A stretch of 32,000 nucleotides of DNA from NCBI GenBank assembly GCA_965238065.1, contig OZ250170.1, positions 1,118,422-1,150,421 of the forward strand, written 5' to 3'. The notes under the pieces are model-generated. The model was not told where the DNA came from. It ran no database searches and was given only the letters and a program-made list of their open reading frames with translations. Below, piece after piece: positions 564-26,759 of this stretch. This DNA comes from Nitrosopumilus sp. Lineage in GTDB: Archaea > Thermoproteota > Nitrososphaeria > Nitrososphaerales > Nitrosopumilaceae. Position 1 is the first letter of the stretch; every line of letters starts with the position of its first letter. Position numbers and translations under genes: made by a program.

Positions 564-1658
564 ATGACAGAAAATCAGCTTGTGAAATCTGCTCAAATCA
601 CAGGCCCTAACGAGCCCCTTGCAGTATTGGAATCAGAGACTCCAAAACCCAAAGGGAATGAGGTTCTAGTCAAGGTAGAATCCGTGGGTGTCTGTCACAG
701 TGATTTGCACTTGTGGGAAGGCGGTTATGACCTTGGAGACGGGCAGTTTATGAAAGTTACAGATCGTGGTGTAAAATATCCTGTAACTCCCGGACACGAG
801 ATTGCAGGTACCGTTGAAGAGATTGGTGATGCTGTCTCTGGAATATCAAAAGGAGACAGGGTTTTAGTTTTTCCCTGGATAGGCTGTGGAGAGTGTCCCG
901 CATGCAGGGTGGAGAATGAGAACCTGTGTGATGCTCCAAGATCAATGGGTGTTTTTCAAGATGGCGGGTATTCTGATTATGCTTTGGTTCCAAATTCCAA
1001 ATATTTAGCAAAACTTGATGGCGTTGATCCCGACTCTGCTACATCACTTGCTTGTTCTGGACTTACCGCATACAATGCTGTCAAAAAGGCAAATGTAAAT
1101 TCGCCAGAATTTTTGTTGATAATCGGAGCCGGCGGTTTAGGATTGATGGCAATTCAACTTGCAAAGGCAATAACTAACGCCAAGATTATCTGCATTGATA
1201 ATGACGACAAAAAATTTGAAACTGCAAAAAAGATGGGTGCAGATTATGTTGTAAATACCAATGTAACTGGTTCTATATCTTCTGGAACTGGTAGTCCTGT
1301 AGAAAAAATAATATCCATTTGTAACGGTAAAGGGGCAGACAGTGTCATAGACTTTGTAAATGCGCCACAAACTGTAAAAACAGCACTGGCAGTTTTGCGA
1401 AAAAGGGGAAACCTGGTACTTGTAGGACTTTTTGGAGGCTCTCTGGAACTATCCCTTGTAACAATTCCGCTCAAATCACTAACCATTCAAGGTGCCTATA
1501 CTGGCAATTACAATGACATGGTTGAGCTAGTTGGCTTGGCAAAAAAAGGCGTAATAAAACCAGTCATATCAAAGAGATATGCTCTTGATGAGGCAAACAC
1601 TGCCTTAAAAGATCTCAAGGCGCGAAAAATTATTGGTCGTGCTGTGATAAACCCCTAG
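564..1658 (+). CDS. Zn-dependent alcohol dehydrogenase (MDR superfamily)
   Basis: 364-aa ORF with GVCHSDLH, GHEIAG, structural-zinc CGECPAC and Rossmann GAGGLG motifs. Confidence 0.9.
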   Translation: MTENQLVKSAQITGPNEPLAVLESETPKPKGNEVLVKVESVGVCHSDLHLWEGGYDLGDGQFMKVTDRGVKYPVTPGHEIAGTVEEIGDAVSGISKGDRVLVFPWIGCGECPACRVENENLCDAPRSMGVFQDGGYSDYALVPNSKYLAKLDGVDPDSATSLACSGLTAYNAVKKANVNSPEFLLIIGAGGLGLMAIQLAKAITNAKIICIDNDDKKFETAKKMGADYVVNTNVTGSISSGTGSPVEKIISICNGKGADSVIDFVNAPQTVKTALAVLRKRGNLVLVGLFGGSLELSLVTIPLKSLTIQGAYTGNYNDMVELVGLAKKGVIKPVISKRYALDEANTALKDLKARKIIGRAVINP

Positions 1659-1865
1659 CTTGGTTAATCATCACGCAAGTCTTTGAAGATAAAAACATCA
1701 AATATGGTCATTCCCATAATGAACTAGATATGACAGATCACACTTGACACCAGTTATTTTAACTGGATGCGTATTGTTGTTTAAATTTCAGCATGATTTT
1801 TTCAGATACCGTATTTTGAGTTTGTACGGTAGTATACAGCATGTGTTCAGGTTTTATTTCAATAT

Positions 1866-2017
1866 CAGATACAGTATTGAAGATGGTTGCAAGGTTTCTT
1901 GATTTTTGCAGATTCTAATTTGTATCCATTAATTAGACATACAATATCGAAGATGGTTGCATGGTTTCTTGATTTTAGCAGATTCTAATTTGTATCCATT
2001 AATTAGACATACAGTAC
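1866..2017. repeat. 70-bp tandem repeat, about 2.2 copies, intergenic
   Basis: Units start at 1879 and 1949 (GAAGATGGTTGCA[A/T]GGTTTCTTGATTTT..TTAATTAGACATACA). A partial third copy of the AGA[C/T]ATACA[G/A]TA junction is present. Confidence 0.85.
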
Positions 2018-2110
2018 AGAAAAAACCATCATCATATTTGCTGCCACATCACATGCCATTTCTGAATATCTGGATTTTGGATGTATGATTGTTTCATGCC
2101 AGTATAACCG

Positions 2111-2209
2111 ATCAGAGAACTCAGAGTAGTCACTTTTTCAACAATAGTCCTGTCTTGAGGAATAGGGACAGGTTGTAATCAGAAAACTCAGAGTAGTCAC
2201 TTTTTCAAC
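2111..2209. repeat. 32-bp direct repeat pair flanking a small hairpin
   Basis: ATCAGA[G/A]AACTCAGAGTAGTCACTTTTTCAAC at 2111-2142 and 2178-2209. Between them lies CCTGTC-N12-GACAGG. Confidence 0.85.
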
Positions 2210-2365
2210 TGTAAGATTTTGACAATATTTTATAGGGTAATCACTGTTGATTTGAATTTTAAATGAAAACATCATGTCTTTGATTTAACGCCGGGCCAGA
2301 AACGTTCCTAGTTTGAAAGTGCGGGAAATCCTATCAGTTATATGTTTACAATACCGATTATGTTC

Positions 2366-2677
2366 ATGGGTAAGCGTCAAGTGAAAAATGAAAGTGCACT
2401 AAAAGAGATTCGTCTTCCTGAAGAAGGTGAGCTTTTTGGGCGCGTATTGAAAATGCTTGGAGGTGAGAATGTCATGATAAAATGTGCCGATAATGTCACC
2501 AGACGTGGCAGGATTAGAGGGAAACTGAAGAGGCGAGTTTGGATTAGAGATAATGATATCGTGATTATTGCACCGTGGGATTTTAAACACGATGAACGTG
2601 GCGACATTGTTTGGAGATTCACACTTCCACAAGTGACATGGCTAAAGGAGCAAAATCACATCCCCAAAGATTTCTAG
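2366..2677 (+). CDS. eif1A: translation initiation factor aIF-1A
   Basis: S1-like OB-fold protein (LPEEGELFGRVLKMLGGENVMIKCADNVTRRGRIRGKLKRRVWIRDNDIVIIAPWDF). ORF opens at 2342, but ATG 2366 (MGKRQVK) gives the typical length. Confidence 0.9.
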   Translation: MGKRQVKNESALKEIRLPEEGELFGRVLKMLGGENVMIKCADNVTRRGRIRGKLKRRVWIRDNDIVIIAPWDFKHDERGDIVWRFTLPQVTWLKEQNHIPKDF

Positions 2678-2716
2678 CCTATATTGACTCTGCCTTGACC
2701 GCTCTTGATACCTTAC

Positions 2717-2724
2717 TTAATATA
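2717..2724 (+). promoter_or_regulatory. TATA-like box upstream of csp
   Basis: TTAATATA begins 31 nt upstream of ATG 2748. Spacing fits a leaderless or short-leader archaeal promoter. Confidence 0.4.
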
Positions 2725-2747
2725 GTGATAAATTATTTGAAGAGTAA

Positions 2748-2939
2748 ATGGAACAAGGTACCGTAAAGTGGTTCAACCGTACTAAGGGCTTTGGTTTTAT
2801 CGAAAGAGAAGGTGGAGACGATCTGTTTGTTCACAAATCAGATGTTGAAGGATTCATCAATGAAGGCGATAAGGTAGAGTTCGAAGTAGGTGAAGGTCAA
2901 AAAGGGCCAGCAGCTCAAAAAGTCAAGAAATTAGAATAG
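2748..2939 (+). CDS. csp: cold-shock domain protein (CspA-like)
   Basis: 63 aa. Contains [15 protein letters not shown] (RNP1-like) and DLFVH (RNP2-like) motifs. Confidence 0.9.
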
Positions 2940-2947
2940 ACAATAAA

Positions 2948-2980
2948 TTTTTTAATTTAAGACGTCATCTATGTTTTTTT
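2948..2980 (+). terminator. oligo-T tracts downstream of csp
   Basis: T6 at 2948-2953 and T7 at 2974-2980. Archaeal termination commonly uses oligo-T. Confidence 0.4.
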
Positions 2981-3040
2981 AATTTAATCTATCATTTCAT
3001 TATCGTATGTATCAACCTCTATGCCTAAATCCAATAGAGT

Positions 3041-4544: not shown

Positions 4545-4671
4545 TGGTCCCAAGCGAAGGAATTGAACCTTCGACAACCCGGTTTCTGTATGCCTGATAT
4601 GCTGTTATTTGGTCAGCCATCTAAAGCCAACAACTACAGCCGGAAGCTCTACCAGGCTGAGCTAGCTTGGG
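4545..4671 (-). tRNA. tRNA-Tyr (GTA) with ~50-nt intron after position 37, CCA encoded
   Basis: Reverse strand reads CCCAAGC-TA-GCTC-AGCCTGGTA-GAGC-T-TCCGG-CT-GTA-G-[50 nt]-A-CCGGG-TTGTC-GAAGG-TTCAATT-CCTTC-GCTTGGG-A-CCA. All four stems pair. Confidence 0.8.
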
Positions 4672-6925: not shown

Positions 6926-7174
6926 TAACTGTCTACAGTTTTGAAGTTGCTTTGTGTTTGTGTCAAAAAAATAACCTGTTTGGATAATTGTCTAGAGTTT
7001 TGAAGTTCCTTCGTGTTTGTGTCAAAAAAATAACCTGTTTTGACATATCTTGTGCGGTATGTATCAACCCCTGCGCCTAAATCCGCTAGAATAGTCAAGA
7101 TGCTATAGGCATAAAACATGTTCTTTGCTTGATTCATACCTTGTGCGTAATACTTCAAAACTGTAAACAGTTAC
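6926..7174 (-). repeat. MITE-B '1.5-mer' (57-bp partial copy + full copy) carrying a nested MITE-A
   Basis: A partial copy (6926-~6982) is followed by a full reverse-oriented copy ending ..CTGTAAACAGTTAC at 7174. The full copy is interrupted at 7057-7139. Confidence 0.75.
7057..7139 (+). repeat. MITE-A (83 bp) with perfect 8-bp TSD CTTGTGCG
   Basis: GTATGTATCAACC...TTGATTCATAC. CTTGTGCG occurs at 7049-7056 and 7140-7147. Removing the element and one TSD restores the MITE-B sequence. Confidence 0.9.
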
Positions 7175-9967: not shown

Positions 9968-11110
9968 ATGTCTGATTATCAAAAAATCATCCCTATTGCA
10001 AACCAAATCCTAAAAAGATACGAACTGTGTGAGAACTGCCTGGGAAGGTTGTTCTCAAGACAATTACACCTTTCATCAAACAGGCTTCTTGGCAAAAGAC
10101 TGAAAAAAAATCCAGACTCTGCTCAAAAGTGCTATATCTGCAAGAATCTGTTTGAGAGACTAGATCGCTTTATAGGATTGATGCTTGATGCCTCAACAGA
10201 TTACTCATTTTCATCATTTAGTGTGGGAGTCATGATCAAACCGTCCATTATTGACAGGGATGATTACATTCGCTCAGAATACAGGCTGAAAGGGATAGAC
10301 GGCATAAAGACTGACGTATCAAGAGAGTTGAGAAAGTCATTCTCCAGAAAAACAAAAAAGACTGTAGATCTTTTAGACCCGGACGTGACTTTTACGATAA
10401 ACGCAAAGGATGAGTCCTGTCAGTTGCGTTCAAAATCAATATTCTTTTCTGGAAGATACCTCAAGACATCAAGAGGGATTCCACAAAAACAGTGGTCTTG
10501 TACGAATTGTTCAGGGAAAGGATGCCGAATGTGTAATTTCCACGGAATCTCAGAATTTGACAGTGTAGAGGGAATAATCTCGCAATTCTTTTTTAAAAAA
10601 TTTGGCGGAACTATTGCAAAATTTACATGGATTGGTAGTGAAGACAAATCCAGTCTGGTTTTGGGTACAGGAAGACCATTTTTTGTCAAGATTCAAAATC
10701 CCCTAAAAAGAGATTTGAGATTAACTTCGGTGACATTTGATTCTCTCAAGATGATTCATCCCAAGATCATACAAGAACCTCCAAAGAAACATCCCAAATT
10801 TAATTCATCAATAGAGATAAAAATTTCCACAGAGGATGAGGTTGATTTAAGAAATCTAAAAAAATTATCCAGCCTCCAAGAACAACCAATAGTAATTTAT
10901 GAAAAATCAGGAAAACGTTCTGAGAAGAGAGTGTTTTCTGCAAGATACAAAAAGAATTCCAGCAAGACCTTTACCCTGTTTATCAGAGTTCAAGGCGGCC
11001 TACCAGTAAAGAGATTTGTAACCAGTGATAATGTAGTGCCAGGAATTTCACAGATTCTCAACACACCATGTATTTGTCAAGAATTTGATTTTCTTGATAT
11101 CGAGGTATGA
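9968..11110 (+). CDS. pus10: tRNA pseudouridine synthase Pus10
   Basis: 380 aa. N-terminal CxxC pairs (CENC..CYIC), a second Zn cluster CTNCSGKGCRMC, and the catalytic region GSEDKSSLVLGTGRPFFV. Confidence 0.85.
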   Translation: MSDYQKIIPIANQILKRYELCENCLGRLFSRQLHLSSNRLLGKRLKKNPDSAQKCYICKNLFERLDRFIGLMLDASTDYSFSSFSVGVMIKPSIIDRDDYIRSEYRLKGIDGIKTDVSRELRKSFSRKTKKTVDLLDPDVTFTINAKDESCQLRSKSIFFSGRYLKTSRGIPQKQWSCTNCSGKGCRMCNFHGISEFDSVEGIISQFFFKKFGGTIAKFTWIGSEDKSSLVLGTGRPFFVKIQNPLKRDLRLTSVTFDSLKMIHPKIIQEPPKKHPKFNSSIEIKISTEDEVDLRNLKKLSSLQEQPIVIYEKSGKRSEKRVFSARYKKNSSKTFTLFIRVQGGLPVKRFVTSDNVVPGISQILNTPCICQEFDFLDIEV

Positions 11111-11188
11111 ATGGTTGTATCTACCTTTACGCCTAAACTGATTAGAATAGTTGGATTTACAGACATACATGTTATTTGCTAACTATAT

Positions 11189-12304
11189 GTGAAGAAAAAG
11201 GCAAGGAATTCAGATAGCATAAAGAATGAATCGGGTAGACCAAAGATCCGTAAATCGCCTTCAAAGAGAACAATTCCAAAGAAACAGATTAGGGATAAAG
11301 CAGAAAATATCATATATGTTGGAATTGATCTGCACAAGAAATTTCATCAAGTGGCCGTTATGAATAACAAGGGAAAGATAACACGAAATGAAAGAATAGA
11401 AAACACACAACAGGCAATCAGACAAATGTTCTCAAAGATACCTCTTTCTGCCAGTATCGTCATGGAATCATCATCAGTTTGGTATGGAGTGTACAGATTC
11501 ATGACAGATGTACTGGGATACAAGGTAGTGTTGTCAAATCCTTATCTTACAAAGGCAATTGCAGCATCAAAGAAAAAGACAGACAAGATTGATGCAGCGG
11601 TACTGGCAGATCTCTTACGTGGAGGATATATTGCAACATGCTTTGTTCCAAGTGATAAAATTGTAAAGGCACGTCAGCTTGTACGGTATAGAAGAAAGTT
11701 GATCCAATGGAGGACATCTGCAAAGAACTGTATTCATGGAATTCTGTTACAAAATGGAATAAAGATTCCTGGAGCAACATTCACAGGATTATACATGAAA
11801 AGACTCTGTGCCCTAGGGGATTACCGTATTGATGGCTTTATACGACAGATAGAATCACTAAATGATATGATTTCAGACATTAATGCAAAGATATATGCCA
11901 CAGTTAAAACCAATTCTGATGCAATGCTACTAAAGACAATACCTGGAGTAGGTGATTACACAGCACTGGTGATTGCATCTGAAATAGGAGGAATCTCTAG
12001 ATTTAATGACTCTCACAAGCTTGCAGCATATGCAGGAGTGGTCCCATCAGTTAGAAACTCTGCAGATACAATACATCATGGACGTATAACAAAGAAAGGC
12101 AGCATGACATTGAGATGGGTCTTGATTGAAGCTGCACATTCTCATGCATTACATGCACCAAATAGTAATATTACACAATTTTACAATCGTATCAAGAAAA
12201 AGAGAGGCAGTTCCAAAGCTGCAGTAGCTACAGGATCAAAAATGTTGCGAGTCATATACTGGATGTTAAAAGAGAAGAGAGAGTTTGTACAAAATTATAG
12301 TTAG
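11189..12304 (+). CDS. IS110-family (DEDD) transposase/recombinase
   Basis: 371 aa from GTG. Motifs: YVGIDLHK, VMESSSVWY, KTDKIDAAVLADL, C-terminal IPGVGDYTALVIASEIGGISRF and ITKKGSMTLRW. The canonical ATG seen in copy 5724-5726 is ATA here (11312-11314). Confidence 0.9.
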   Translation: MKKKARNSDSIKNESGRPKIRKSPSKRTIPKKQIRDKAENIIYVGIDLHKKFHQVAVMNNKGKITRNERIENTQQAIRQMFSKIPLSASIVMESSSVWYGVYRFMTDVLGYKVVLSNPYLTKAIAASKKKTDKIDAAVLADLLRGGYIATCFVPSDKIVKARQLVRYRRKLIQWRTSAKNCIHGILLQNGIKIPGATFTGLYMKRLCALGDYRIDGFIRQIESLNDMISDINAKIYATVKTNSDAMLLKTIPGVGDYTALVIASEIGGISRFNDSHKLAAYAGVVPSVRNSADTIHHGRITKKGSMTLRWVLIEAAHSHALHAPNSNITQFYNRIKKKRGSSKAAVATGSKMLRVIYWMLKEKREFVQNYS

Positions 12305-12511
12305 GACCATAGGTCGCGTTATGAATCATGAGGGTAAAGACCTCGCTTGCTAATTGCGGTTGATCCTAACTCAGGGATGAAGATAGCATTGAGGATCAAA
12401 ACCTCGTATAGATAATTATCCGCGTCCTGTATCATTTGAAACATATCTCTAGCGTATGCTATACTACACATGCTGAAAAAGGATAAAATGCTTAAAAAGG
12501 TCTCACATAGA
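12305..12511 (+). ncRNA. 3' non-coding tail of IS110 element; candidate guide (bridge/seek-like) RNA region
   Basis: No ORF. Hairpins at 12330-12344 (GAGG/CCTC) and 12360-12399 (TTGATCC/GGATCAA). TATGAATCA (12320-12328) is complementary to the target right flank TGATTCATA. Function is inferred only. Confidence 0.3.
12491..12498 (+). promoter_or_regulatory. TATA-like box near IS110 right end (candidate circle-junction promoter)
   Basis: CTTAAAAA lies 13 nt from the right end. After end-to-end joining it would lie at -29..-22 relative to GTG 11189. Confidence 0.3.
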
Positions 12512-12669
12512 TGATTCATACCTTTTTTCTCTTCAATTGCTCTAACAAATTAATCGGTTAATCATTGAAAATTAACCAAGTTTTTTTGACAAGATTTTGT
12601 TCGATATTGATCTCAAAAAAAAAATAGAACAAATTCATTCAGTATGATTGTAAAATAGATCAAATATTT

Positions 12670-13047
12670 GTATGTATCAACCTCTACGCCTAAATCCGCT
12701 AGAATAGTCAAGACGTTATAGGCATAAAACATGTTCTTTGCTTGATTCATACGATAAAACGATACCGGCGTGGTGATGATATTATGAAAAAGTTTGGAAT
12801 AAAGCTGAAAAACGCACGAAATGACCTGTTCACATTTGTGATGTGTCTTGGCGTGCCATCAACTAACAATGATGCGGAAAACTCTATTCGAAAATGTGTG
12901 ATGCTGAGAAATGTACGGGGTCAGCTGAAAAGTGAAAATAGGATGAAGATACTTTCAGTATTTCTAACATGTTTTGAAATATGAAGAATTAAAAATTAGA
13001 ACGGCCTAGTTGAGATAGGAAAATACATTTAGATGCATGATTCATAC
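12670..13047 (+). mobile_element. MITE-A copy fused to the last ~295 bp of an IS66-type element
   Basis: 12670-12752 is a full MITE-A. 12753-13047 matches the 3' end of IS66 copy 20324-20620 (rc), ending ..TAGATGCATGATTCATAC. Flanks AAATATTT and CTATTTGT do not match. Confidence 0.75.
12742..12984 (+). pseudogene. IS66-family transposase C-terminal fragment
   Basis: The 80-aa ORF is near-identical to the C-terminus of the 20339-21700 product (IKRYRRGDDIMKKFGIKLKNARNDLFTFVMC.GVPSTNNDAENSIRKCVM). Confidence 0.9.
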
Positions 13048-13085
13048 CTATTTGTTTTTGAAAAATTGAAAAGACTTATGCTATG

Positions 13086-13150
13086 GGGTACACCGTATGT
13101 TTTTTGATGTGTTTGATAAAACACATTATTTCATGTGTTAAAGTGTACCC
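13086..13150. other. nested inverted repeats (possible bidirectional terminator or structured RNA)
   Basis: Outer arms are GGGTACAC (13086-13093) and GTGTACCC (13143-13150). The inner perfect hairpin is ATGTGTTT-GATA-AAACACAT (13107-13126). Confidence 0.4.
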
Positions 13151-13224
13151 TTGTTTTTAATACCGCTTTTTTACTTGAATATTTACAAAATAATTCATTT
13201 CAACAACATCATTAGCTTCCAAAA

Positions 13225-13884
13225 TTACTTTACTTTTCTAGCACTATCAATTCTTTCTACAAATTGATCCACAGCATTCTCATCAATTAAAGATAAAACT
13301 TTAAGGTCATCAACAGTGTTTAGTTGCTTTTTTGCTATCAATAGTATTTTATCTCTTTCTTTTTTTACATCAGAACGAAATTTGTTAGAAAATAAACAAT
13401 GCCAATTTTCTGCAAGTTTCATCTTTTTTTCACATATTAGGACAAAAGATGCCAAATAAAGTTGATATTGAAACTTTGATAGTGTTTCATATTCTAATTT
13501 CAAACAAGTATAATCAGCTATAGCAAGCCTAAAGTCCTGAAGACATGTCACAGATTGAATGTGTTCAGATAACCAGTCATCAAACAAAGAGTAAGAAATG
13601 AAATATTCGTTACACAGTAATAGTGCAGATATCACAATTACTACAATTATGATAGTAATAAAATACTCAAACACAATATATTCTGACAGGTACGTTGGTA
13701 AAAGAACAGATATACAGGCAATAAGAGACATCATGCCAACTATCTGCAGATGTAATCCACGTCGAGTTTGATTATCACGCGCAATAAACAATATTCGTAT
13801 TCGAGAATCCAACAGCTCACGATATGCCTGATTTCTATCTCGTAATGATTCTATATCCACTATAATGAAGTAAAAAAGAATCAA
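13225..13884 (-). CDS. orphan membrane protein (2 predicted TM helices), very AT-rich
   Basis: 219-aa ORF from TTG 13884; the first in-frame ATG is at 13734. Hydrophobic stretches MMSLIACISVLLPTYL and FITIIIVVIVISALLL. No motif I recognise. Confidence 0.5.
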   Translation of the reverse strand: MILFYFIIVDIESLRDRNQAYRELLDSRIRILFIARDNQTRRGLHLQIVGMMSLIACISVLLPTYLSEYIVFEYFITIIIVVIVISALLLCNEYFISYSLFDDWLSEHIQSVTCLQDFRLAIADYTCLKLEYETLSKFQYQLYLASFVLICEKKMKLAENWHCLFSNKFRSDVKKERDKILLIAKKQLNTVDDLKVLSLIDENAVDQFVERIDSARKVK

Positions 13885-14091
13885 GTTAAATCTTTGCCTG
13901 ATTTGCCTAAACCCAAGTATAGAATATTAGCAAAATTTGGGATTTTTCCGTGTAGATCAAATTTCACACTGTTCAGAATTTGGGACATTTGGTAAGATTC
14001 ATTCCTGAAAAAATACAGTAACCTCAGTTAGAATTGCGTTTTTGACCACAAATATGATAACAATTAACTAGAACTGGAATTGTAAAACAGT

Positions 14092-14190
14092 ATGCCAATA
14101 AGAAAGAAAGGTAAACACAAGAGACATGCTGATCAAAGGGCCGACACACGTAGAAGAAAAAAGGCTAAATCAGGTAAAGCCAGATCCTAA
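14092..14190 (+). CDS. possible 32-aa highly basic peptide
   Basis: MPIRKKGKHKRHADQRADTRRRKKAKSGKARS*. Below the ORF-track cutoff. The stop lies 2 nt before the IS110-delta left end. Confidence 0.25.
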   Translation: MPIRKKGKHKRHADQRADTRRRKKAKSGKARS

Positions 14191-14192
14191 CT

Positions 14193-14743
14193 AACTATAT
14201 GTGAATAAGGGGCAAGGAACTCGGATAGCATAGAGAATGAATCTGGCGAATCAGAGATCCGTAAATCGCCTTCAAAGAGAACAGGTTCAAAGAAGCAGAT
14301 TATGGATAAACCAAAAAATATCATATATTGGGTATTGATCTACACATGTAGCCTCTTCAAGTGGCAGTCATGAATAACAAGGAAAAGAGGACACAGAACA
14401 AAAAAAATAGAAAATACACAACTGTAGATAGGAGAGTGTTTCATTTGGAGCAAAAAATACTAATCAATCAAATAAATTAGATGGGAAAAGCTAGAATGAG
14501 ATTGTGTAATTCCATCAAATGTGGCACTTTTCTGTCTACTGCACAACAGACAATCGCAGTTATTCTCAATGATGTCACTTTCTACCAGTATCGTCATGTA
14601 ATCATCAGTTTGGTATGATATATTGGGGATCAAACCATGTATGGATAAATGTCCGCATCTTTTATCATTTGAAACATATTTCTAGTAAAAGATATACTCC
14701 ACATACTGAAAAAAGATGAAATACTTGAAAAGATTCACATGGA
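14193..14743 (+). mobile_element. IS110-type element, internally deleted and degenerate
   Basis: 5' ~230 bp (AACTATATGTGAATAAGG.. with stops) is joined to the last ~125 bp of the 3' tail (..GATTCACATGGA). Carries a nested MITE-E. Flanks are CCTAACT | TAAATCAACC, not MITE-A. Confidence 0.75.
14422..14540 (-). repeat. MITE-E (119 bp) nested in IS110-delta, 5-bp TSD CACAA
   Basis: CACAA occurs at 14417-14421 and 14541-14545. Removing the element restores the IS110 sequence ..AATACACAACAGACAATC... Confidence 0.8.
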
Positions 14744-14784
14744 TAAATCAACCTTTTTACATTCAAAATTCTCGATGAGGGACA

Positions 14785-15492
14785 ATGGATCCGCTAGTAC
14801 GCCTGAGAGATGCGCATGCCAAAGGAATGATTCCTGATGACGTGTATGATCTTACAGTAAGACGTTTTCCCATTACTGTTTCAGGAATAAACAGGATTGA
14901 AAAAGCATCTGGAATTAAATTTCCTATTGCATATGTAGAGCCATCTCTTGTAATATCATCTCCTGACCCAAATTCCTACGAGTATGGAATCTTGTTTGCA
15001 AGAACAATCCCGGTATTGTATGAGGAAAAGTTTCAAGTCGTAATCCAGATTTCCGCACCGCTGGTTGCCTATGGACTGAAAGGGGCAATTCATGCAATTT
15101 TGGCGCACGAGTTCTTACATTTTCTGGAACTAATAAAAAAGATTTCAAAGATGGAGTTACTCTCAGATGAAATTTCCGGGAATTTATTTGAAAACGTTTA
15201 CAGTGATGAGACCAGGTTGTTTGAACCAAGAGTGGTATTCAAAGATCGTACTTTGTTAGATCACATCACAAGAAAATTTCCAGTAGGTTTTCGTGATTTT
15301 AAACTTGAAGACAAGACCATAAAATTTTGGGCCGACAGGGATCTTCCTAGAACAAACATCTCTTTGGATACCAACACTGTAAAGTTATCCGTAGAATCTC
15401 TCTCAAAAATCAAACTAGATCCCGCATTTATTTCAAAAATCGAGCAATTACAAGAAAAAAGTTCCAAAATTCGCAAGAAAAAATTGTACTAA
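14785..15492 (+). CDS. hypothetical protein with HExxH metallopeptidase-like motif
   Basis: 235 aa. Contains AILAHEFLHF, with a Lys-rich C-terminus. Confidence 0.6.
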   Translation: MDPLVRLRDAHAKGMIPDDVYDLTVRRFPITVSGINRIEKASGIKFPIAYVEPSLVISSPDPNSYEYGILFARTIPVLYEEKFQVVIQISAPLVAYGLKGAIHAILAHEFLHFLELIKKISKMELLSDEISGNLFENVYSDETRLFEPRVVFKDRTLLDHITRKFPVGFRDFKLEDKTIKFWADRDLPRTNISLDTNTVKLSVESLSKIKLDPAFISKIEQLQEKSSKIRKKKLY

Positions 15493-15792: not shown

Positions 15793-15874
15793 GTATGAAT
15801 CAAGTAAAGAACATGTTTTATGCCTATAACGTCCAACTGTTCTAATGGATTTAGGCGTAGAGATTAATACATAC
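15793..15874 (-). repeat. MITE-A (82 bp) with perfect 8-bp TSD TAAAATTT
   Basis: GTATGAATCAAG...TTAATACATAC. TAAAATTT occurs at 15785-15792 and 15875-15882. Confidence 0.9.
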
Positions 15875-15918
15875 TAAAATTTCATGAATTAAATTCTGCC
15901 AGTCTACGATTCCAGAGT

Positions 15919-16511: not shown

Positions 16512-16722
16512 AGATTTAATATGTATTCATTACAGTGTGTCAAATATTACCCACATGGATTGGAATTGCATGTAGGGATTCTGCAAGAACGGTTTTGTAT
16601 GAATCAGCAAATAACGTAACTGTCTACAGTTTTAAAGTATAATTTTTCAAATATTCCAAAGCATAATCATGGAAATTCAATCCCCTTGTCCTGCATGTCT
16701 CCTTTATACTCATCAATATCTT

Positions 16723-21911: not shown

Positions 21912-22060
21912 GTAGTATCAACGTAAGAGTTTAGGTTGAGCACGAATTTTAGATGTTCTAGTCAGGAGACCTAAACTCTTACGTATCAACCGCAATATCT
22001 CAATCAAATGGAATAGTCAGACATTATAGGCATAAAACATGTTATTTGCCTGATTCATAC
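21912..22060 (+). repeat. MITE-A copy carrying a nested MITE-C
   Basis: GTAGTATCAAC[MITE-C]GTATCAACCGCAATATCTC...CATGTTATTTGCCTGATTCATAC. Confidence 0.75.
21923..21982. repeat. MITE-C (60 bp) with perfect 8-bp TSD GTATCAAC
   Basis: GTATCAAC occurs at 21915-21922 and 21983-21990, inside the MITE-A terminus. Confidence 0.9.
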
Positions 22061-26642: not shown

Positions 26643-26724
26643 GTATGAATCAGCAAAGAACATGTTTTATGCCTATAACATCTTGACTATTCTAGCGGAT
26701 TTAGGCGTAGAGGTTGATACATAC
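26643..26724 (-). repeat. MITE-A (82 bp) with perfect 8-bp TSD ATGAAATT
   Basis: ATGAAATT occurs at 26635-26642 and 26725-26732. The first copy contains the TGA stop (26636-26638) of the upstream gene. Confidence 0.9.
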
Positions 26725-26759
26725 ATGAAATTAAATTGCTTCAAAACTAGAGTGGTTTC

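Follow-up and report, generated by a model that had tools for sequence, protein, structure and literature searches.

The window analysed here, a 32,000-nt stretch from a Nitrosopumilaceae-like archaeon (Nitrosopumilus sp., contig OZ250170.1, positions 1,118,422 to 1,150,421), carries at 11181-12511 an insertion sequence (IS) of the IS110 family with the architecture of the IS1111 subgroup. Its transposase gene, tnp, is followed by a long tail, and we argue below that this tail very probably encodes a folded guide RNA of the IS1111 type, which would pair both with the insertion site and with the element's own ends. The support is complementarity, covariation of guides with flanks and with element ends, covariation within the RNA structure, the protein family and the anatomy of the junctions (coordinates in Table 1).

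The transposase matches PF01548 (E = 2.4e-28) and PF02371 (E = 1.5e-23) and scores 250.9 bits against the NCBIfam model NF033542, "IS110 family RNA-guided transposase", above the cut-off of 140. The closest solved structures are those of ISCro4 (9t56) and IS621 (8wt6), with which the GID, ME, TDxxDA and P....S motifs align. In the alignment to ISCro4, GIDlh stands opposite GIDvs, ME opposite ME and TDkiDA opposite TDavDA, and P....S is shared; hence all Asp/Glu/Asp/Asp and Ser columns, whose catalytic role we take from published work on IS621, are occupied. The serine motif reads GVVPSVRNSA, with SA where IS1111 has SG or TG. An exact-sequence look-up of this protein returned zero records. The GTG start codon at 11189 sits within the left subterminal inverted repeat (IRL); an ATG at 11227 was rejected as the start, being out of frame, and the frame from the GTG is conserved. 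The non-coding sequence amounts to 207 nt on the 3' side of tnp versus 8-9 nt on the 5' side of the GTG. The subterminal inverted repeats measure 7 bp here (ATGTGAAT with ATTCACAT, 8 bp, in relatives), and outside them lie terminal extensions, the left one of 5-6 nt and the right one of 2-3 nt; the element ends in TCACATA-GA at 12511.

The element interrupts a repeat resembling a miniature inverted-repeat transposable element (MITE), with termini GTATG(A/T)ATCAA and TTGATTCATAC, and sits 10 nt inside the right tip of that repeat. Empty alleles of the form TT(A/C)TTTGC-T-GATTCATAC are present at 16598-16607 (-) and 26644-26653 (-), and the filled site reads TTATTTGC-T-AACTAT...CACATAGA-T-GATTCATAC; one T is therefore shared and there is zero duplication. 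A blunt insertion (TTTGCT|TGATTCATA), modelled on the neighbouring paralogous MITE at 12738-12751, was rejected in favour of the shared T, because TTTGC-T-GATTCATA alleles exist in the window and the other filled/empty comparisons share 1-3 nt. Over the three target types compared in this way, the junctions share T, TA or TAA without target-site duplication; in other genomes it is TAA at palindromes resembling repetitive extragenic palindromic (REP) sequences and TA at the end of a sibling IS. At TG-type targets the left junction has TA and the right junction TG in 6/6 insertions. From the shared bases we place the donor junction at ..GGA-TA-ACTAT.., with the crossover at or adjoining the T. 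Uninterrupted sites exist for all three classes, namely MITE termini, REP-like palindromes (GGTTCTGG-TAA-ATTTTGGTGATC) and the left end of a sibling IS, and the flanks are therefore target DNA. REP-like repeats of the form GGTTCTGGTAAATTTTGGTGATCnGATCAC..CCAGAACC serve as targets in some Nitrosopumilus (L003-L014, L022, L048, L049; e.g. L010:6933-7000), and many uninterrupted copies of such repeats are found in Nitrosopumilus genomes. The MITE-like terminus also ends IS66-type remnants in the window (a DDE_Tnp_IS66 fragment at 12742-12984, and at 13037 and 20334).

An earlier, sequence-only reading had proposed a bridge- or seek-type guide RNA in the tail, starting from one segment. This segment, TATGAATCA at 12320-12328 (UAUGAAUCA as RNA), is indeed the reverse complement of the right flank TGATTCATA at 12512-12520. 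The match grows to 10 nt with 12329 and 12511, but 12511 is the final base of the IS. The chance of such a match had been put at the order of 10^-3, and 200,000 shuffles of the 207-nt tail agree with it (P = 0.0033 for a match of at least 9 nt to the 10-mer; P = 0.0004 for 10 nt). The GAGG/CCTC hairpin reported at 12330-12344 is present and is lengthened by a U:G pair (12329:12345). GCTTGCT follows at 12345-12351 as described, and its 5-nt match to the left flank, which had been called weak, is real, for it covaries with the left flank among relatives.

These relatives came from a protein-guided scan of one genome per species, which gave 59 loci. In ~30/59 of them the whole tail can be aligned, at ~70% identity, and their transposases are 52-74% identical. 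A covariance model (R1) built from 18 sequences found 52 full-length modules, always directly 3' of tnp, and the 52 elements compared belong to assemblies of Nitrosopumilus, Cenarchaeum and Bathyarchaeia. Among the matches are lineages whose transposases are 44-61% identical (L024, L033, L038 from Cenarchaeum and L044 from Bathyarchaeia), and the window itself scores 129.9 bits (E = 1e-28, 12294-12439). The modules share a constant frame, GCGU-[~10 nt]-UGAGG..CCUCG-[~5 nt]-UAACUGCG, in which the bracketed segments are variable. The first variable segment is complementary to the DNA directly right of the element, and the second is identical to the DNA directly left of it.

To quantify this correspondence, we shuffled guide-class labels among flank sets. 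For the right guide, the mean longest match was 5.29 versus a null of 3.37 (sd 0.23; 0/20,000; 18 classes, 37 insertions), and for the left guide the score was 3.7 of 5 versus 1.7 (sd 0.25; 0/20,000; 16 classes, 38 insertions). The check set beforehand, covariation of guide and flank across related copies with other targets, was thus passed on both sides, and the proposed layout of the target-binding loop, with guides on either side of a stem-loop, holds for both segments. In the window the right guide and flank are UAUGAAUCA/TGATTCATA and the left ones UUGC/TTGC. The corresponding pairs elsewhere are UGUAAUUAU/ATAATTACA and UCUAA/TCTAA (L001, L017); AAAAUUUAU/ATAAATTTT and CCUGU or UCUGG/CTGT or TCTGG (L003, L007); and GGUAUGU/ACATACC and GUUGA/GTTGA (L009). 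Right pairs are UUAUGAUUGU/ACAATCATAA in L012, UUUAUGCGU/A(C/T)GCATAAA in L029, L031, L036 and L051, and AAACACAU/ATGTGTTT in L025; left pairs are GACGCA/CACGCA in L038 and AUUUCA/CTTTCA in L044. Metagenome contigs hold further classes, such as UAAGAUUG/CAATCTTA. In terms of strands, 12320-12328 is predicted to pair with the top strand of TG-ATTCATA, and the left-target guide, which has the same sense as the left-flank TTGC-T, with the bottom strand. The constant UAAC/UAAU on the 3' side of the target loop equals the core plus the first bases of the left end.

A sharply different and independent guide/target pair is provided by seven loci (L016, L019, L020, L021, L046, L034, L041) in which a second element, IS-B, is nested inside the left end of the first. 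IS-B has its own tnp and RNA module (~2770-2916) and spans ~1650-3000 per locus. Its site is TAACTA^TA^TGTGAA, in the layout ..TAACTA|TAACCATATGTGCC ... TTCACATGGA|TATGTGAATAAG, and its guides UUCACAU and AAACUA specify exactly this insertion site. IS-B is hence an IS that targets the ends of sibling IS copies, and because it lies inside an intact sibling left end, its flanks are target DNA outside the element.

The tail and its relatives support a structured RNA of ~130 nt, predicted at ~12296-12425 and beginning at the tnp stop codon. The bridge/seek RNA proposed for the tail is thus upheld by covariation, with a different extent: the core starts in the stop region of tnp and ends before 12511. 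RNAalifold on two alignments, together with pair counts, gave five helices (P1-P5), in which 99.4% of cells are paired and both sides have changed in 12/25 pairs; slid-partner controls were paired in 34-46% of cells. P1 surrounds the target module and overlaps with the TAG stop codon of tnp at 12302-12304. Conserved G:U pairs are frequent (U12329:G12345, G12379:U12417, U12390:G12406) and would be A:C on the other strand, which makes the structure specific to the tnp-sense strand. The minimum free energy (MFE) fold of the 130-nt core alone reproduces the consensus. A T run follows P4 (CATCTTTTG, T4, in relatives; TTT at 12435-12437 here), at which the RNA may end. The boundaries given earlier for the tail (12305-12511) are confirmed, and the statement that it has no open reading frame (ORF) is not: a 66-aa antisense ORF runs through 12319-12519 (-), with its ATG in the flank, inside the target sequence. 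This ORF is unlikely to be coding, because the relatives' tail alignment carries 1-3-nt indels.

Table 1. Positions of the element, its target, the predicted RNA and related copies in the window
Feature	Positions	Strand	Sequence or basis
Interrupted ~83-bp MITE-like repeat, left part (target)	11105-11180	+	Aligned with five uninterrupted window copies
Left target	11176-11180	+	TTGC-T; T11180 is the nucleotide common to both junctions
IS boundaries	11180/11181 and 12511/12512	+	One T common to both junctions
IS left end	11180-11194	+	T-AACTA-TATGTGA-AG; sequence read
IRL, left subterminal inverted repeat	11186-11192	+	TATGTGA, reverse complement of TCACATA at 12503-12509
Transposase gene tnp, 371 aa, IS110-family DEDD type	11189-12304	+	Profile matches
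Predicted bridge/seek RNA core, two modules	12296-12425	+	Covariance model, consensus structure, MFE fold
P1 helix	12300-12305 / 12365-12370	+	GUUAGG / CCUAAC; 4/6 pairs compensatory, 100% paired
P2 helix	12314-12318 / 12355-12359	+	UCGCG / UGCGG; closes target-binding loop; outer pair UA/CG 9 vs 10
Right-target guide, target loop 5' side	12319-12328	+	UUAUGAAUCA; covariation with flank
P3 hairpin	12329-12345	+	UGAGG-GUAAAGA-CCUCG; separates the two target guides
Left-target guide, target loop 3' side	12346-12354	+	CUUGC-UA-AU; covariation with flank
Donor module	12375-12421	+	P4, 5' loop, P5, 3' loop
P4 helix	12375-12379 / 12417-12421	+	GGAUG / UAUCC; 100% paired
Donor 5' loop	12380-12389	+	AAGAUAGCAU
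P5 hairpin	12390-12406	+	8 + 5 compensatory cells
Donor 3' loop (left-donor guide)	12407-12416	+	UAUAGAUAAU; AUAGA-UA is same-sense to CATAGA of the right end and core T(A)
Tail remainder	12422-12511	+	Short T run, BRE/TATA-like box, IRR, tip GA
IRR, right subterminal inverted repeat	12503-12509	+	TCACATA; tip GA at 12510-12511
Right target	12512-12521	+	T-GATTCATAC; final 10 nt of the MITE-like repeat, its terminal inverted repeat
Target sequence			TTATTTGCTGATTCATAC
Uninterrupted MITE-like copies	7056-7138, 12669-12751, 21977-22059	+	Window alignment
Uninterrupted MITE-like copies	15794-15876, 26644-26725	-	Window alignment
Degenerate copy 2	14192-14743	+	Left end plus ~95 codons, ~120-nt insertion; alignment

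The two modules of the predicted RNA are near-duplicates, in which a UGAGG..CCUCG hairpin is flanked by a 5' loop of 10 nt and a 3' loop of 9-10 nt, and both 3' loops have UA at the third and fourth positions from the 3' end. The stem TTGATCC/GGATCAA (12360-12366 / 12393-12399), which had been suggested to form the donor loop, is complementary in the window copy only; in relatives its bases fall in two separate conserved elements, the 3' strand of P1 and the loop of P5. Within the donor module, an alternative pairing (P4a plus P6; GGAUG/CAUCU plus a GGAUA/UGUCC hairpin) reached 91% and 93.5% paired and was rejected. The preferred GGAUG/UGUCC helix is 100% paired, is intact through the four substituted positions of L044 and is unbroken by the G-to-A change of the window.

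We noted that the donor 3' loop, (U)AU[G/A]G[A/G]-UA, equals the right end plus the core in every usable copy, with 0 discordant. ATGGA goes with CATGGA; ATAGA with CATAGA (window copy 1, the L024 group, one nested element and L038); and ATGGG with CATGGG (L044). The two copies in the window differ jointly at donor loop and right end, copy 1 being A/A and copy 2 G/G. On the opposite side, AUAG in the donor 5' loop accompanies CTAT in the left end, and AUGG accompanies CCAT, with the register unchanged. The 5' loop (12381-12389) also shares a same-sense motif of 6-10 nt, AGATAGCAT, with the first tnp codons (11212-11220). The shared motif switches in step across lineages (AGATAGCAT, ATGGTACT, AGATGGTACT or AGGAAACG), with two partial exceptions, and could represent either a third contact with DNA or mRNA mimicry.

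In the mechanism that we propose, a ~130-nt tnp-sense RNA would be made, either as a separate transcript or as the 3' part of the tnp transcript, and would fold into two similar modules, in each of which a stem and an internal loop are combined with a UGAGG...CCUCG hairpin. Module 1 would be the target-binding loop, module 2 the donor-binding loop, the AUAG on the 5' side of module 2 being complementary to CTAT of the left end. The RNA-bound DEDD/Ser transposase would then act on the junction of the excised circle (..CACATAGA-TA-ACTATATG..) and on the target, recombining the two at the shared T, and the outcome would be a precise insertion without target duplication, here 10 nt within the MITE-like terminal repeat. 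We infer that the RNA is transcribed and bound by the protein, that strands are exchanged by this chemistry and that a circle is the intermediate. The tail also holds a conserved, outward-facing box resembling a TFB-recognition element (BRE) and TATA box (CTTAAAAA at 12491-12498; GGAAATGTATAAAAAC in relatives), with ~21 nt between it and the right tip. Were the ends joined in a circle or in tandem, this spacing would set the start of transcription on the GTG at left-end position 10-12. A leaderless tnp mRNA might thus form solely after excision, which would be the archaeal equivalent of junction promoters in bacteria, and the box and the T run would be a putative promoter and a putative terminator, respectively.

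Other explanations of the tail were weighed against a guide RNA. The complementarity might be due to chance in AT-rich DNA, the tail being a 3' untranslated region or terminator plus transposase-binding ends; the probability of a single 9-nt match, ~0.003 per tail, is non-negligible genome-wide, and the z-score of the whole-tail fold is weak. Yet in ~20 guide classes it is the same two RNA positions that fit the flanks (0/20,000 permutations per side), the helices show compensatory changes and the empty sites put the flanks outside the element, and we regard chance as having a negligible probability. The 9-mer might instead be a fragment of the target repeat, an IS66/MITE terminus, that the IS captured, in which case the match would reflect homology and not function. 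This possibility had been raised together with the original proposal, and the target is indeed the terminus of a multicopy repeat, with 14 matches to the pattern xTGATTCATA in the window against 6.7 expected. Capture is nevertheless excluded for practical purposes, because homology ends at 9-10 nt and the different sequences of the relatives match their own flanks: the segment is in inverted orientation, no similarity between 12305-12360 and the MITE was seen past the 10-mer, and relatives in unrelated targets hold different 9-mers at the identical position of a conserved stem-loop frame.

The pairing might also be real with RNA uninvolved, the guide being single-stranded element DNA or the target being read by protein, and covariation alone fits an RNA or a same-sense DNA strand equally. 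The conserved helices, however, depend on many G:U pairs, which is typical of RNA; the RNA used by homologous systems of bacteria co-purifies with their transposase (PMC11187229, PMC11208160), and the protein here matches the RNA-guided family model, so a reading in which RNA has no part appears highly improbable. Lastly, the tail might produce a small regulatory RNA that controls transposase expression and does not guide recombination, a role once proposed for the small RNAs of ISPpu9, as noted in PMC11208160. The same-sense motif shared by the donor 5' loop and the first tnp codons would permit mimicry or autoregulation, and the outward TATA-like box suggests regulated expression. As a same-sense motif, however, it is unable to pair with the mRNA, and regulation leaves unexplained why two loops track the insertion flanks and a third tracks the right end. 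We therefore hold a purely regulatory RNA to be quite unlikely, noting that the roles of regulator and guide are non-exclusive.

Several observations weigh against the guide RNA that we favour. The guide fits poorly in some insertions (L002, L015, L022, L043, L004, L011), the pairing register of the right guide shifts by ~1 nt either way between classes, and the variable part of the left guide is just 4-6 nt. The right-donor match is just 4-5 nt, essentially one covarying switch, with two imperfect cases. The guide class of the window is represented by one informative insertion, copy 2 being devoid of the target loop; an exact search of metagenome contigs for the window guide module gave no match, and the class therefore still has this single insertion. 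Pairs were counted on an alignment that had been fitted to a model already holding the helices, which inflates the paired fraction and not the compensatory changes. Folding of 12305-12511, one of the checks proposed with the note, gave a divided answer: the 130-nt core behaves as described above, and the full 207-nt tail is unexceptional (z = -1.38 on the plus strand, +0.40 on the minus strand), with an MFE structure that differs from the model, buries the guides and is unsupported by relatives. Rfam 15 gave no match to the tail (gathering score or E up to 10; window and 11000-15000), its coverage of IS1111-type RNAs not being established. Regarding the misfits, the right flank TGCATTCTAGTGATC in both copies of L004 and in L011 matches the resident guide at just 6-7/10 positions, and the same flank fits perfectly a guide class, UAGAAUGCUU, from metagenome contigs (L060, L061, L064). 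This misfit could reflect off-target insertion at a near-cognate repeat variant, or replacement of the guide.

The element fits the IS1111 subgroup in its 3' non-coding region, in its subterminal inverted repeats of 7 bp, in inserting without target duplication and in the order of its guides. A longer non-coding region downstream of tnp is the IS1111 rule (PMC11187229, PMC11208160), along with subterminal inverted repeats of 7-17 bp with short extensions and a GL-P----S(T)G motif in a transposase of 330-350 aa (PMC11187229). In IS1111-type seekRNAs, the segment that can pair with the top strand is placed 5' of its bottom-strand counterpart (PMC11187229), and here too 12319-12328 (top-strand) precedes 12346-12354 (bottom-strand). 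The IS1111 seekRNA elements ISEc11, ISKpn4, ISPa11 and ISPst6 (Siddiquee et al. 2024, PMC11187229) resemble our element in their DEDD transposase, the long downstream non-coding region, subterminal repeats with short extensions, site-specific insertion without duplication, and the order of segments, which overlap at the crossover. Our element differs from them in its archaeal host, in repeats near the lower limit of the range (7-9 bp), in a transposase of 371 aa that starts from a GTG inside the repeat, and in a serine motif of the form G..P....SA (SG/TG there, with TA occasional). Its RNA, predicted from sequence, starts at the stop codon, and the fit to IS1111 is one of architecture.

For bridge RNAs, the left-target and left-donor guides pair with bottom strands and the right-target and right-donor guides with top strands, with the core included in each (PMC11208160). 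The bridge RNA of IS621 and ISCro4 (Durrant et al. 2024, PMC11208160; 8wt6, 9t56) is like the present one in having separate target and donor internal loops, in these strand rules and in the aligned protein motifs. In IS621, however, the RNA lies in the left end upstream of tnp, the left-target guide precedes the right-target guide, the core is CT and a sigma-70 promoter forms at the junction; here the RNA lies 3' of tnp, the right-target guide comes first, T is shared (TA in most targets) and any promoter is necessarily archaeal. The guide order is thus reversed relative to IS621, as follows from an IS1111 rather than an IS621-like IS110 architecture. In the predictions of Durrant et al., 93% of IS1111 entries have a bridge RNA in the right end, and the same authors remark on multi-loop donor sites (PMC11208160). 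Fixed insertion inside the terminal inverted repeat of another element is a likeness to IS4321/IS5075 of the IS1111 family (Partridge & Hall 2003, as cited in PMC11208160), whose targets, by that citation, are the 38-bp repeats of bacterial Tn21-family transposons; the targets here are a MITE-like terminus, REP-like palindromes and a sibling-IS left end. ISPpu9 of Pseudomonas putida, with its Ssr9 RNA (PMC12288879), is likewise an IS110-family element that sits in REP sequences and has a gene for a small RNA downstream of tnp; it is bacterial, and the likeness is drawn from its description, not from sequence or structure.

Since both the strand rules of bridge RNAs and the position and order of IS1111 RNAs are already published, the kind of system is known. 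Archaeal IS110 recombinases and their RNAs have so far been surveyed in bulk only, as counts and predictions (Vaysset et al. counted 662 archaeal IS110 recombinases), and the literature searched held no loop-by-loop analysis of an archaeal bridge RNA or of the present lineage. Sequence comparison would extend an RNA-guided mechanism known from bacteria to abundant ammonia-oxidising archaea, the hosts of this lineage apparently including sponge symbionts with many IS copies. The relatives form a natural reprogramming series, with many guide/target pairs on a near-constant scaffold, which is useful for deriving mismatch and register rules of IS1111-type elements. The compact pair of recombinase and RNA, from an archaeal, low-G+C background, is also a candidate tool, and for the proposed connection of IS110 recombinases with Nop5 (bioRxiv 10.1101/2024.06.21.599552) it supplies a concrete example from TACK archaea. 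More tentatively, and with appreciable doubt, these elements may constitute a diversified archaeal lineage of RNA-guided IS with guides reprogrammed by nature to at least ~20 targets among closely related elements, an expression logic specific to archaea and a third RNA-matching site in the left end. If so, the targets would span MITE terminal repeats, REP-like palindromes and sibling-IS left ends, the last being a case of an IS parasitising its relatives, and the third site would be a feature undescribed for bacterial bridge RNAs.

The degenerate copy 2 has lost the rest of tnp and the entire target loop and has kept the 3' side of the donor loop and the right end. The last ~125 nt of the tail had been said to be conserved in this copy, and they are (14612-14743, 86% column identity); the match of copy 2 to the covariance model is weak (14563-14672, E = 0.007). 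Its right flank, TAAATCAACC, is similar to the left terminus of the MITE. A small, very basic ORF (MPIRKKGKHKRHADQRADTRRRKKAKSGKARS) at 14096-14191 (+) stops exactly at the left junction of copy 2, and the final 9 nt of this ORF, GATCCTAAC, equal the 3' strand of P1 in the RNA (12362-12370). The neighbours of the IS are Pus10, TBP and SRP54, and together with the related loci, found in Nitrosopumilus and Cenarchaeum assemblies, they assign the element to Nitrosopumilaceae-like archaea. Farther away, a tRNA gene at 4548-4671 (-) spans 124 nt (Rfam RF00005, 47.4 bits) and presumably contains an intron.

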